Both the position numbers and the translations under genes were made by a program. From the NCBI GenBank assembly GCA_965178125.1, contig OZ237774.1, positions 372,001 through 436,000 on the forward strand: a DNA stretch of 64,000 bases, written 5' to 3'. Of this stretch, positions 57,356 through 64,000 are shown piece after piece. The notes under the pieces were generated by a model. That model saw only the letters and a list, made by a program, of their open reading frames with translations, had not been told where the DNA came from and did no database searches. The DNA comes from Bilabrum cf. latius (Eukaryota). The stretch's first letter is position 1; every line of letters starts with the position of its first letter.

Positions 57356-57967
57356 ACGGGGGGGACAACAGGTGGTGGTAGGTACACCAAGCGTTTAGGA
57401 CGAGGGCTACGCTACGCTCGCCCCTCCTTTAAAGGCATATTTAGCAACTCAAGTGTTTCCCCTATAAACCTAAATGATTTCACAGGGGGTTCCCCAAGAA
57501 CCCCTATAGAACCCCTCTATGTACCCATTTTCAGATATAAAATTTACTCCTACGAAGTAGGGGTAAATTGAAGAATTCTAATATTTAACCCCCTTATAAA
57601 CTCTAACAGCAAAGACAGAGATGTTTTAGTAAAGTAGGAAAAAATGAAGAAATTAACCAAGTGTCCAAAATATCTCTGTGTTTGCTGTAGGAACGGAAGG
57701 ATGAATTCCCAAGAGACCAAGAGACCAACCGAGGATTTCCCCAAGAGAACAAGGTATTTTATCAAGAGACCGAGGTATGTTCCCAAGCGACAAACCGATA
57801 AACCGACCGATGAACCGACCGATGAACCGACCAAGGATTTCCCAAGGATTTCCCAAGGATTTCCCAAGCGACTAAATTGTTCTCCGAAGCAACCAAACCG
57901 ATTACCCAAGAGATGATACATTATAAGGAAAACGAAAACGTATTTTAAGTCCCTTTGGAAAAGTCCC

Positions 57968-58330
57968 CCAAGATGCTCGGGCTTTGCCCTCCGCTCTTTT
58001 GATATCTTTTTCAAAGATTAAAATTGAGAGATTTTACAGGTCAATTATAAGAGACTTAGAAAAAATAAATTAAGTTCCCAAGATGCTCGGGCTTTGCCCT
58101 CCGCTCTTTTGATATCTTTTTCAAAGATTAAAATTAAATGTTGTAATTCCTATGATGCCACCATAAAAATTAAAAGGAAAATAAAAAACAAATTATAATT
58201 GTTTTCCAATTAAAAACACAAAAATTGATTGAAAAATTTTGACAATATAGGATACAAAGAAATATTAAAATTAATTTTCCAAGATGCTCGGGCTTTGCCC
58301 TCCGCTCTTTTGATATCTTTTTCAAAGATT
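57968..58330 (+). repeat. Three copies of a 52-bp direct repeat in the non-coding left end (putative terminal repeat region)
   Basis: CCAAGATGCTCGGGCTTTGCCCTCCGCTCTTTTGATATCTTTTTCAAAGATT at 57968, 58078 and 58279. Confidence 0.95.
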
Positions 58331-58524
58331 GGATTTCCCAAGAGATGATAATTAAGACCATTCTATATCACTATAGTAAATGAACCCATTTTTAAAGGAG
58401 TTGATGATAGAGCATATTGTCAAGCAAATTAATCCACGTATTTGGAAAAAATTACACGAAAAACTAAAGGAATACAAGAAGCTCGGGCTTTGATATAAGT
58501 AGAAGACTATACTATAAAGTACTT

Positions 58525-58809
58525 ATGAAGCTACATACCTACGATTTTGAAAAGGTTGTTGAGAATTTTCTATTTAAAGCACCCTCAAGACGCAAGAATA
58601 AGAAGTATGATGTTTTTGACGAAAATGATGAATATATTACATCGTTTGGTGATAGGCGGTATTAGCAATTTTACGATAGAATAGGGTATTACAGCCATTT
58701 AAATCATTTAGATACGGACCGCCAATTTAGATACTTCAAACGACACGGTATCGAAGTAAAACCAAGAACCCCAAAGTTCTTCTCACATTTTTACCTTTGG
58801 AGTTCATAA
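58525..58809 (+). CDS. Tlr6F-like (DUF5754-type) small conserved protein of virophages, PLVs and Polintons, 94 aa
   Basis: SRRKNKKYDVF...ITSFGDRRY[TAG]QFYD...HLDTDRQFRYFKRH...PKFFSHFYLW; ends in TAA. Absent from the ORF track because of the TAG at 58663. Confidence 0.8.
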
Positions 58810-59340
58810 ATGACACGTCAATAAATACACTAATTCATCAGGATTTAATGTATGTTTCTTACAAACCTTATCCACCCACTTTTTATACTAATCAGCGTTT
58901 TTTCCCCTATTCCAAAGACGAACTATACAATGTCTCCCGCAGGTTGCTATATCCATTCCATCCGCCTAAAACTAATATGGGTTATAGTCAATCTTATACG
59001 GAGAATGATACATTAAATATATTAACTCAGGGTCTTCATAAAAACGTTTCCGCACGCTTTCACTCATTGTGTGCTATTGCCTATCAGGACGAATTCCATA
59101 ACTGTCAAAGAAGTATATTGTTTTATTACGCTTAAATAAGCACACCCAGTGTCCAGAATTTATTTCTTCTTGGTATAGAATGATACAACAATTACAACGA
59201 CTAAATAATCCATCAATACTATTGTACTATCCTAATTCTGTATATGGAACGATGTTTACCGACGTAGGAAGAAACCCCTTAATATTTGGTGGAGTTTGGA
59301 GGAGAACACGAATATCACTATCGCTAAGAGCATAATCCAT
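58804..59340 (-). CDS. Virophage maturation cysteine protease (adenain/Ulp1-like clan CE), 178 aa
   Basis: MDYALSDSDI...IILYQEEINSGHWVCLFK...IYFFDSYGIRPD...YNPY[TAG]F[TAG]ADGMDIATCGRHCIVR gives the His, Asp, Gln, Cys catalytic set. Five in-frame TAGs; ends in TGA. Confidence 0.92.
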
Positions 59341-59529
59341 ATATATTTATTATAGAAACATATATTGGGGGAGATGAATTCTCTTAACCACTATTTAAGC
59401 GTAGAAGTATTTCTACAAAATCCGTTTTGGAATTTGTGGATAGCATAAAAGACAATCATTCAAAATAAGTTTTCAACAAAAAGACAAAACACTTTAGAAA
59501 AAATAAAAACATATAGTAAATACACTAAA

Positions 59530-61943: not shown

Positions 61944-62008
61944 CCAAAACCTCTTATATACATCTTTTGGCAACCTGATAAAAATTATATCTGTGGATAT
62001 ACTATAAA

Positions 62009-62500
62009 ATGTCAGTCTCAAATCTTCTATCTAAGAACAGTCTAGACCTTATGTCTCAAACTATTACGTGTAATGTTGTGAGTAGCGACGCAATTAAAGT
62101 GTCCGCAATTACTAACTCTACGGGAGCAGTCATAGGCAATCCAAGTATTGAATTCAAAGACGGAGAGCCTTATATGGAGTGGGGTGAAACTGTTCTACGG
62201 TTTGGAAAAAACGGAGCGTCTGCTGGTTGTCAGTTCAGTATGAGCGAAGAAGGAGAAAGATGCGATATTTCACTAGTTGGTTCATTCAAGACTTCTCAAG
62301 AGGGTGTTGTTGGGCTGAGTGAGGTTGCTGGAGCTACATTGGCTGACGCTTCTACCCCTATTAATACGTCAGCAGAGCGAAAGTTCAAGGGCGCTTTAGT
62401 GTATAATGGAAGCGACAACGATGTCTATGTGGCGATTGGCAGTTCTTCTACATCTAGTTGGAAATCCTTAGTGTCAGGTTCACTTATTACACCATCTTAA
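62009..62500 (+). CDS. Uncharacterised virophage protein, 163 aa (possible fibre/spike-like structural protein)
   Basis: Intact ORF ending in TAA, directly upstream of the penton. The N-terminus MSVSNLLSKN resembles N-termini of virophage fibre-like proteins (recollection, unverified). Confidence 0.55.
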   Translation: MSVSNLLSKNSLDLMSQTITCNVVSSDAIKVSAITNSTGAVIGNPSIEFKDGEPYMEWGETVLRFGKNGASAGCQFSMSEEGERCDISLVGSFKTSQEGVVGLSEVAGATLADASTPINTSAERKFKGALVYNGSDNDVYVAIGSSSTSSWKSLVSGSLITPS

Positions 62501-62556
62501 TTATACTTTAGAAAAGTAATCAAACCCACCCCATAATTATAAACGTCTATAGTAAA

Positions 62557-63672
62557 ATGAGTTCTCCAGACCGATTTTACATTACCGCAAACATACGAAA
62601 TAACGAAGATACTTTCCAACCAGCGACCTATAGCGAAACCCGCAAGTAGCCATTATTAGATAAGGATGTTGGTGATTATACGATGTCAGTATTCCGGTTT
62701 TCCATAAGCACCAATTCAATACCTTTATGGGTTCCACACATAGAAACCGATAAAGTGAAAAATCCATCTTCAAATCCTAATCAAACGGTGTATAGAATAA
62801 GCATTACAGATGAAGACGGAGTAAGTTTGTGGACCTCAAGCATTCAGTGGAGACCCTAGTTAACAGGGGAAAACCAACCATCTTTTTCCAATCCTATGTA
62901 GTTTGTTCCTTATTATTATATGTATTCCGTGTAGCATTTTGTTGATTTATTCAACGAAACCATATAGAATGCTTTATCAGCGGATATTACATCAGTTCCG
63001 GTTTTACTCTTTAAAGATGGAAAGTTCAGTTTAGTAGCAAACCCCGATTACGACGAGGAAAACTCAGGACAGAAATTTAAATTAGTGTTGAATGAAGCCC
63101 TTAACGAACTGATGACGGGTTTTCCTATGGAACGAATGGATATCCAAGATGACGACTTATACGCCAGTATTCTATTCAAAACCCTAGGAACCAATGTTTT
63201 ATTCGATGATGGCTCTTCTGTTGGAAAATATGAACCTTAGGCATACTTCGAGGGAAACCCAACGGGAGACTACAGATTAATGATGACCTAGGAACGAGGG
63301 AGTTTAGTGTAGTTTTAGATTTTTCGCGGAATAGTTTTCACATCTTCAAGTCTTCCAGTGAGGAGTGAGGCAATATCCTAGAAATCCGCCTATGGACAAT
63401 CCACTAATACAGTTCAAAATTCAGGTTCAGGGACCGAGAGTTTATTAGTGGATATGGATTGTGTATTAGATGATACTGAAACAGTTAATTAGCAGGTTCT
63501 TCAATACCAGCCCCATATTCTCCACGAAATTGATTTTTTAGATACACATTCAGTAGATAGGATTTAGTTTAATCTATATTGGAAAGACAATTATTCAAAT
63601 CTAAGACCTCTTTATTTACGCCACGGAAGTGTGAGTGTGAAGTTTTTATTTAAGAAACGGAAAGGACTTTGA
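62557..63672 (+). CDS. Virophage minor capsid protein (penton), 371 aa
   Basis: YSETRK[TAG]PLL...DYTMSVFRFSISTNSIPLWVPHI...NPNQTVYRISI...IVFTSSSLPVRSE...LYWKDNYSNLRPLYL..GSVSVKFLFKK. Many in-frame TAGs; ends in TGA; immediately upstream of the MCP. Confidence 0.88.
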
Positions 63673-63750
63673 AAAAATGATAATTCGTCGGATGGGGACG
63701 CGACCCCATAGAATTTTATTCGTTGTATATAATATACAAGGAAAACAAAA

Positions 63751-64000
63751 ATGTCATTGAATACATTTGCCCTTCAGCCAGTCAAAGTATCTCCCGCAAC
63801 ATTAGACGTACAACCAAAGCCTTATGAAGTTCAAGAAGGTTATGAGAACCGAACGTTTCGCAGATACGCTCCATCTGGTTCAGCCGGTAATTATAATTCA
63901 GGTGTGAATTGGAATATTAGTATGCCTTCAGGTGTAGGTTTATGCCGCCGCGCATACGTGTCTTGCCGTTTTTCCATTACCTTTTCCGTGAATAATCAAA
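63751..64000 (+). CDS. Virophage major capsid protein, N-terminus (3'-partial)
   Basis: MSLNTFALQPVKVSPATLDV...YEVQEG...TFRRY...VNWNISMPS...LCRRAYVSCRFSITF resembles the Sputnik-type MCP N-terminus; canonical penton-MCP gene order. Confidence 0.75.
   Translation, partial: MSLNTFALQPVKVSPATLDVQPKPYEVQEGYENRTFRRYAPSGSAGNYNSGVNWNISMPSGVGLCRRAYVSCRFSITFSVNNQ

Follow-up and report, generated by a model that had tools for sequence, protein, structure and literature searches.

A candidate TAG-recoded virophage with Sputnik-type capsid genes, integrated beside a host gene that carries in-frame TAG as well

Near the right-hand end of the 64,000-nucleotide (nt) stretch analyzed here (contig OZ237774.1 of the Bilabrum cf. 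latius assembly GCA_965178125.1, positions 372,001 to 436,000; hereafter, the window), GC-rich host DNA gives way to an AT-rich block. The locus raises the question of what this block is, how it came to lie beside a host gene and in which genetic code its genes are written. A preliminary description, made without database searches, had taken it for an endogenous virophage, that is, a small double-stranded DNA virus depending on a giant virus. Our analysis leads to a more specific answer. The block very probably represents a distinct virophage clade that reads TAG as glutamine, has capsid genes of the Sputnik type and is integrated 3–4 nt past the end of the reading frame of a host TPR gene. 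The element places an intact-looking morphogenesis module in the host chromosome.

The boundary between host and element is marked both by composition and by contig ends. The guanine plus cytosine (GC) content is 0.61 in bases 1–57,358 and 0.368 in the remainder of the window, which bears out the AT-rich block adjoining GC-rich DNA that had been described. In 500-base windows it ranges between 0.51 and 0.65 at 53,500–57,499, is 0.41 at 57,500–57,999 and lies between 0.29 and 0.43 at 58,000–64,000. The left end of the element, formerly placed at 57,360, had to be moved to 57,358/57,359 in view of the contig ends; it falls within a G run, 3–4 nt past the TGA (57,353–57,355) of the host gene. Across the first ~1–1.1 kb of the AT-rich block there is no convincing gene and repeats are abundant, so that the repeat-rich non-coding end of the preliminary description also held: short tandem repeats with units of 8–21 nt were found at 57,709–57,868, and a 63-nt direct repeat is present in three copies at 57,957–58,330 and in a partial fourth at 58,475. 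No part of the element DNA was found again in the preceding 57 kb of the window, and the terminal region showed no resemblance to any of the related loci described below.

The coding content of the block depends on the code with which it is read. With translation table 11, six of the eight genes of the element are broken, and only the gene of a 163-amino acid (aa) protein and the N-terminus of the major capsid protein (MCP) are whole. Reading TAG as sense and keeping TAA and TGA as stops gives a compact gene set free of frameshifts, in which the eight genes span about 92% of 58,525–64,000 (summed coordinates). Their 1667 codons include 46 in-frame TAG, 41 CAA and 15 CAG, with neither TAA nor TGA in frame, and the genes end in TAA (four) or TGA (three). 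TAG is, consequently, the commonest presumed glutamine codon of the element. Translation table 6, in which TAA also encodes glutamine, was rejected since it fuses neighbouring genes; for the same reason, TAA is considered to be a stop.

The residue assigned to TAG was derived from orthologues translated with TAG kept distinct; a residue was counted only if it was aligned with a TAG and was itself encoded by an ordinary codon. When the window was aligned with six related loci (L001–L006), glutamine occupied 86 of the 267 cells facing TAG, followed by lysine (23), serine (22) and glutamate (21). The log-odds summed over four lineages and 92 columns were +22.4 for glutamine, −58.2 for lysine and −60.1 for glutamate. 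In addition, differences between copies of the element swap the two codons, from TAG to CAG at 60,840 and from CAG to TAG at 63,493. As judged from sequence comparison, the element uses a code that assigns TAG to glutamine and keeps TAA and TGA as its only stops, like NCBI table 15. There is no tRNA in the part of the element seen; the sole tRNA of the window, which is also the only match in Rfam, is Trp-CCA and lies in the host part.

The host genes carry the same signature. Six long host open reading frames (ORFs), with about 11,069 codons, contain TAG in frame 47 times and TAA or TGA never; their stops are TGA in five cases and TAA in one. In the gene that flanks the element, a Pfam TPR match extends across one of the TAGs (residue 978). 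Among the products of the long ORFs are two paralogous hybrid histidine kinases and a huge repeat protein, and further host ORFs encode an HSF-type DNA-binding domain, which we take to mark the host as a eukaryote, an AN1 zinc finger and an ABCB-type transporter. Judging by these genes, the host, a GC-rich eukaryote, appears to reassign UAG alone, a rare type of nuclear code.

The features of the element and of its host flank are collected in Table 1. The two structural proteins tie the element to virophages. The penton protein scores above the Pfam threshold for V18-19, a family of Sputnik minor capsid proteins (E 1.1e-10), and a profile based on it matches the minor protein of the Sputnik virion (PDB 3j26_N, 3e-16). 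The 83-aa start of the MCP is weak when taken by itself (Sputnik_MCP_1st, E 0.0064, below the cut-off), and it has 60–71% identity to the beginnings of five full-length genes found on related contigs. One full-length relative of 585 aa (P0016) matches Sputnik_MCP_1st at 5.6e-27 and MCP_V20_C at 1.7e-25, and in the PDB it matches Sputnik V20 (3j26_A) at 2.4e-34 vs. 2.3e-5 for the mavirus capsid. Neither the penton nor the capsid protein found a match in the phage collection. When set against Pfam and the PDB, a set of references that did not include capsids of Polinton-like viruses (PLVs), the MCP thus fell with the Sputnik-type families, and it is read as virophage-type rather than PLV- or Polinton-type. 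The gene order previously proposed (Tlr6F-like, protease, ATPase, penton, MCP) is right, with the qualification that these genes are open only with TAG as sense, the most unusual feature of the locus and one that the preliminary description did not mention. The genes of the morphogenesis module are present as claimed, the protease and the packaging ATPase as putative assignments, but to call the module complete was an overstatement, since the window ends within the capsid gene. As had been stated, no integrase or polymerase was found in the window, either among the ORFs with TAG as sense or in the Pfam search.

The remaining gene products are less readily classified. The 94-aa protein barely passes the cut-off of Pfam DUF5754 (E 3e-6, 27.6 bits vs. 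a cut-off of 27.4) and is 67% identical to L004:13593-13874. Its designation as Tlr6F-like holds only insofar as the DUF5754 family is matched; according to Yutin et al. (2015, PMC4642659), Tlr6f is a small protein whose conservation extends over PLVs, several virophages and giant viruses. In the putative protease, His64, Asp79, Gln125 and Cys134 are invariant across five aligned sequences. The Foldseek matches listed for its model, a poor one with a predicted local distance difference test (pLDDT) score of 56.9, are almost all of the CE clan (best E 9.4e-4, TM ~0.4) and include adenovirus protease, pS273R of African swine fever virus (ASFV), Ulp1/SENP and bacterial deubiquitylases. The protease matched no Pfam family and no PDB sequence; a search of its profile against PDB sequences returned WD40-repeat matches only, which were discarded as spurious. 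The ATPase has a Walker A motif at residues 116–123 and a Walker B motif at 184–189, and its 103 homologues come in many cases from contigs of 10–25 kb. Its Pfam matches are to generic AAA/P-loop families, all below the cut-off, and the fold search with a poor model (pLDDT 51.8) was non-specific, giving generic RecA-like matches. The 85-aa and 393-aa proteins have homologues in related contigs and fit no known family. The 163-aa protein had no BLASTP match in the related loci; its first ~20 residues resemble, by eye, the start of a 347-aa protein of L004, and a search of the protein atlas gave a weak phage-tail-like trimeric lead below the level of recognition. The 163-aa gene is also the only complete gene of the element without TAG and lies in its GC-richest stretch (0.43). 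The absence of TAG is not significant because the gene has only three glutamine codons, and its recent acquisition is possible.

The element is not alone in its code. Among 1051 candidates scored, the penton protein had two close homologues (52% identity), and a scan of metagenome contigs confirmed six loci (L001–L006) out of 141 pattern matches, with penton identities of 42–53% in the scan and 43–54% in the comparison of the window genes with the loci. The two longest relatives come from contigs of 15.0 and 17.8 kb; the standard code breaks up their genes, which become open once TAG is read as sense, and in-frame TAG was found in orthologues of all six loci. Scans of viral contigs, which used N-terminal patterns only, gave no match for the penton query; for the capsid alignment they gave a single, far more distant virophage contig (L007, with 23% capsid identity), whose genes the standard code leaves open. 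No tRNA was found in L001–L007. The relative L004 encodes an integrase (rve, 5.2e-9, with Chromo, 3.4e-7) and a protein-primed family-B polymerase (DNA_pol_B_2, 1.2e-10), together with a DUF5906/VapE-type primase-helicase, a penton, a capsid protein, a DUF5754 protein and a DUF285 repeat protein. It has homologues of five of the window genes located between the terminal repeat and the penton, that is, all but the 163-aa gene. Gene order is not the same in the relatives: in the window, the genes running from the ATPase through the 163-aa protein form an inverted block placed between the protease and the penton. Three genes differ in length from those of relatives: 85 vs. 120–134 aa, 393 vs. 462–484 aa (267 aa in L005) and 163 vs. 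347 aa. In L004, AT-rich repeat arrays at 2,637–3,084 and 9,700–9,996, up to 88% mutually complementary, flank the block from polymerase to protease; these arrays may mediate the inversion of the segment from the ATPase to the fibre-like gene that is inverted in the window element.

A search with the capsid of the clade among 1.84 billion representative proteins gave 2406 relatives at E ≤0.001. Every full-length protein among the best 150 was at most 32% identical, and identities of 49–81% occurred, within the same 150, only in five fragments of 133–270 aa (P0126–P0129 and P0153). Fragments are what standard-code gene calling would make of recoded genes, and public catalogues have probably split recoded virophage genes in this way. 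The earlier suggestion, made by eye, that penton and MCP are Sputnik-like and may belong to a new clade is borne out by the preference for V20 over the mavirus capsid and by this low identity to the nearest full-length capsids.

The junction was followed in public sequencing runs. Nine runs contain part of the junction stretch and four were compared, all of them short-read assemblies. The contigs of X5, a run that may be of RNA or DNA, do not cover 58,015–64,000, and X6 covers the host flank solely at 53,604–54,405; such blanks are not evidence. Contig depth is not copy number, and it was used only as a contrast within a run, as a hint. In X1, a contig covering 54,014–57,384 runs from the host gene into the element with zero differences, and in X5, which comes from another study, the contig 55,480–57,386 also crosses the junction. 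The claim of an integrated virophage beside host DNA is supported by these two contigs, which pass from the host gene into the first 26–28 bases of the element. A contig of X6 starts at 57,359. In X5, two other left flanks join the same element end at 57,357/57,358, as expected of several insertion sites. At 57,358/57,359, contigs from three of the runs begin or branch, whereas those of the element body begin at 58,301–58,309. The depth of 57,359–57,860 is about twice that of the body (1296 vs. 512–703 in X1; 50.6 vs. 17–25 in X6), which fits a ~1-kb terminal repeat at both ends, and the region 57,358–58,330 is probably the terminal repeat of the element. The depth of host-flank contigs in X1 was 48, as compared with 541–642 for contigs of the element body; under the limit on depth given above, this fits several copies per genome or extra free DNA. 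Several positions in X1 hold two variants at roughly equal depth, and at some positions all the depth differs from the window, so the window copy is one of several variants. Of the differences between copies, 36 were listed (57 more were not), with 22 silent, nine residue-changing and five intergenic. Such mostly silent differences are a mark of purifying selection on working genes.

Table 1. Features of the element and of the host DNA in the window. Positions are those of the window.
Feature	Position	Strand	In-frame TAG	Basis
Host flanking gene, 1358 aa, CLU-like region and TPR_12 repeats, TGA stop	53279..57355	+	9	Pfam
Terminal region, repeat-rich, non-coding	57358..58330	.		Tandem and direct repeats; contigs begin or branch at 57,358/57,359
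Tentative 37-codon ORF, right after an exact copy of the promoter-like motif	58381..58494	+		Weak
DUF5754 small protein, 94 aa	58525..58809	+	1	Pfam DUF5754
Putative cysteine protease, CE-clan (adenain/Ulp1-like), 178 aa	58804..59340	-	5	Invariant residues and Foldseek
P-loop ATPase, presumed packaging ATPase, 300 aa	59530..60432	+	9	Walker A/B
Basic protein, no known family, 85 aa	60462..60719	-	5	Conserved in relatives
Protein of no known family, 393 aa	60762..61943	+	14	N- and C-termini conserved in relatives
163-aa protein	62009..62500	+	0	ORF whole under the standard code too
Penton (minor capsid) protein, 371 aa	62557..63672	+	12	Pfam V18-19; PDB 3j26_N
MCP gene, first 83 codons, cut by window end	63751..64000	+		Identity to full-length relatives
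CTATAGTAAA-like sites	58371-58380, 59511-59520, 60753-60762, 62547-62556	+		
CTATAGTAAA-like sites	58670-58679, 59346-59355	-		
TAG-bearing host ORFs, examples	2-7,105; 24,672-33,311; 53,279-57,355	+		
TAG-bearing host ORFs, examples	11,995-16,122; 33,644-40,111	-		

Several observations weigh against an integrated, glutamine-recoded virophage, and they have to be considered together with the other explanations they might favour. The interruption of six of the eight genes under the standard code, and the shorter length of three of them compared with relatives, might be taken to indicate a dead, decaying insertion in which the in-frame TAGs are nonsense mutations. This is very improbable: the 46 in-frame stops are all TAG and none is TAA or TGA, a pattern not expected of random decay; there are no frameshifts, the TAG-only pattern is shared with the six relatives and with host genes, and the differences between copies are mostly silent (22 vs. 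9 among those listed). Another objection comes from 95 distant homologues of the ATPase, in which the nine TAG columns are mostly occupied by other residues (E 188, K 118, D 118 and G 110, with Q 39). In column 211, where TAG is found in all four lineages compared, 81 of these 95 homologues have glutamate and 10 have glutamine. Furthermore, the comparison of host paralogues was uninformative on the residue, with TAGs either in unalignable regions or shared. The ATPase columns would suit a sense codon of other meaning (Glu or Lys), while a partial regulatory read-through, as in some recoded phages, could also be proposed. We regard both as unlikely, and the glutamine assignment rests on the closer relatives, for which glutamine is by far the best fit for TAG; column 211 is accordingly read as a change to glutamine that became fixed in the clade. 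In near-identical copies TAG and CAG replace each other, TAG is too frequent in comparison with CAA and CAG for a rare regulatory read-through, and in-frame TAG is carried by host genes as well.

With respect to the integration, the depth contrast in X1 between element and host flank also fits abundant free DNA, and the short-read graph breaks exactly at the junction. Free or episomal virophage DNA misassembled onto a host contig, and not integrated here, would explain both. Moreover, the junction contigs of X1 and X5 enter the element by just 26–28 nt, below the 31-letter rule for bridging, and X1 may be the source data of the window assembly. The short crossing is, nevertheless, expected because the assembly graph branches at the repeat. 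The end of the host gene is joined to the first bases of the element in two studies, X5 has two further left flanks attached to that end of the element, as would be expected from several insertion sites, and an rve-chromodomain integrase is encoded by the relative L004; misassembly is therefore held to be improbable. The affiliation to virophages could also be disputed in favour of a PLV or a Polinton, given that L004 combines an rve integrase with a protein-primed polymerase in Polinton-like fashion and that the small Tlr6f-type protein is, in the pages of Yutin et al. (2015, PMC4642659) devoted to it, common to PLVs and virophages. In addition, the ATPase could be placed no finer than P-loop/RecA-like and not in the FtsK-HerA family, and the models of the protease and the ATPase are of low confidence (pLDDT 56.9 and 51.8). 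Nonetheless, the penton and the capsid match Sputnik Pfam families and the Sputnik virion structure, and the mavirus capsid more weakly, in a set of references that did not include PLV capsids, which makes a PLV or Polinton highly unlikely. It must also be weighed that integrase, polymerase, right end, orientation of the terminal repeat and target-site duplication all lie beyond the window, and that neither a giant virus nor a suppressor tRNA was seen.

Taking the element as an integrated virophage of a TAG-recoded clade, a mode of life can be proposed. Integration would be carried out by an rve-type integrase encoded past the window and replication by a protein-primed polymerase, both as suggested by L004, and a terminal repeat of ~1 kb would be present at both ends of the element. 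With no tRNA in the part of the element seen, its proteins would be made only in cells decoding UAG; these would be cells of this host lineage, or cells provided with the tRNA by a co-infecting virus. The element would, in the former case, depend on the UAG-decoding tRNA of the host. Reactivation on giant-virus infection and protection of the host population, the candidate defence role put forward in the preliminary description, may be envisaged solely by analogy with mavirus biology.

Transcription may be carried out by giant-virus machinery from a short motif placed just upstream of the genes. The motif CTATAGTAAA, with one mismatch allowed at most, occurs six times in the window, all within the element, vs. 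0.61 expected, an excess which is overstated because the shuffles drew on the whole, mostly GC-rich window; the placement of the sites is unaffected by this. Five of the six sites lie 0–10 nt before a start codon, and two further genes carry ACTATAAA just upstream of the start. In the relatives the CTATAGTAAA motif is absent except for one site, which would fit the use of different helper viruses. Hairpins after stop codons, considered as a candidate 3'-end signal of the giant-virus kind, are visible by eye and were not more stable than shuffles (z −0.4 to −1.8); no such signal is proposed here.

Integrated virophages are themselves known. Mavirus, the subject of work by Fischer and Hackl (2016), is an integrating virophage of Cafeteria, and the provirophages of Bigelowiella are further established examples. 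Endogenous mavirus-like elements (EMALEs) are those of Cafeteria burkhardae (Hackl et al. 2021, PMC8547959). The element resembles mavirus and the EMALEs in being integrated in a protist nuclear genome, in having several copies or variants, in its penton and capsid genes, accompanied by a putative protease and a presumed packaging ATPase, and in the rve integrase with chromodomain and protein-primed polymerase, found here in the relative L004. It differs from them in a clade capsid much closer to Sputnik V20 (2.4e-34 vs. 2.3e-5) and in the use of TAG as glutamine; it is, furthermore, known from sequence, and its reactivation and its role in defence are suggested by analogy. With Sputnik (PDB 3j26) it shares the Pfam families of penton and major capsid proteins, including direct matches to the virion chains. 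Unlike Sputnik, it has another genetic code, its clade has a full-length capsid at most 32% identical to full-length relatives (among the best 150), and L004, its relative, encodes an integrase of the rve type along with a protein-primed polymerase. The integrase of Sputnik is of the tyrosine type, and no protein-primed polymerase is known to us from that virus.

Viral genomes with a changed meaning of TAG are also known. PLV-type insertions in Streblomastix strix use the TAA/TAG = glutamine code of their host, from which a long association is inferred in the passage of Bellas et al. (2023, PMC10120064) that deals with them. As far as that passage goes, they share with our element the condition of small integrated DNA viruses written in the non-standard nuclear code of the host; they are, however, PLVs of a metamonad with both TAA and TAG reassigned, whereas here a virophage is involved, TAG alone is affected and free-looking relatives of 15–18 kb are present in metagenomes. 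The crAss-like phages that read TAG as glutamine (code 15) infect hosts with the standard code, according to the portion of PMC9523058 concerned with recoding. The codon, its meaning and the viral nature of the genome are then the same as here, but those phages, as portrayed there, recode on their own, while in this case host genes carry TAG too and neither the element part seen nor its relatives have a tRNA. Among eukaryotes, UAG alone is reassigned in a rhizarian (leucine), a fornicate (glutamine) and ciliates. We know of none among these lineages that would be expected to have a genome of ~61% GC and long uninterrupted ORFs. Cases of this kind are addressed by Panek et al. (2017, PMC5304391) and in a report on phyllopharyngean ciliates (PMC11687900), and they agree with the present host in that UAG is sense and UAA still a stop. 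For virophages, the part of Paez-Espino et al. (2019) dealing with codes mentions only an ochre-suppressor tRNA in one clade, with host reassignment as a speculation. No report of a TAG-recoded virophage was found in a full-text literature search combining virophage or giant virus with code terms, in which few subscription journals were covered; the insertions of S. strix come nearest to a precedent. What is new here is, therefore, a distinct virophage clade with Sputnik-type capsid genes in a TAG = glutamine code apparently shared with the host, with mavirus-type integration and replication genes in its relatives.

Some traits of the host part of the window deserve to be recorded apart from the element. 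The two hybrid histidine-kinase genes (24,672–33,311 and 33,644–40,111) are very large and are arranged tail to tail; their products are identical over long stretches, a common TAG included, and the pair looks like the result of a recent inverted duplication or of gene conversion. Inside the host TPR/CLU gene, the segment 53,604–54,405 is covered 3–5 times as deeply in X1 and X5 as the sequence on either side, and several contigs stop within it and continue differently; it has the look of a domain or repeat shared by many loci. Just upstream of the first ATG of the same gene, a contig of X5 skips 53,130–53,257 (128 bases, with GT..AG ends); this gap could be an intron removed by splicing, should X5 consist of RNA, or else an allele with a deletion. 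The open-ended ORF at 2–7,105 encodes more than 2,367 aa with many similar units of ~100 aa and ends in a predicted membrane anchor, and its product looks like a giant repetitive surface protein.

Endogenous virophages are the best candidate for a heritable and inducible defence of protists against giant viruses. The shared code ties this virus to its host without a culture experiment. We consider it reasonably likely, with less confidence than the identity of the element itself, that the virophage lineage and, by implication, its giant viruses evolved inside a protist lineage with UAG = glutamine, in which TAG became the commonest glutamine codon, the code acts as a lock and the clade has been largely hidden by standard-code gene calling. 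One prediction is that the helper giant virus must also tolerate UAG as sense. If this is true, these virophages would be expressible only in hosts with UAG = glutamine, and standard-code viruses that end their genes in TAG would be mistranslated there. Surveys of virophages made with the standard code would, in turn, miss or under-count recoded lineages.

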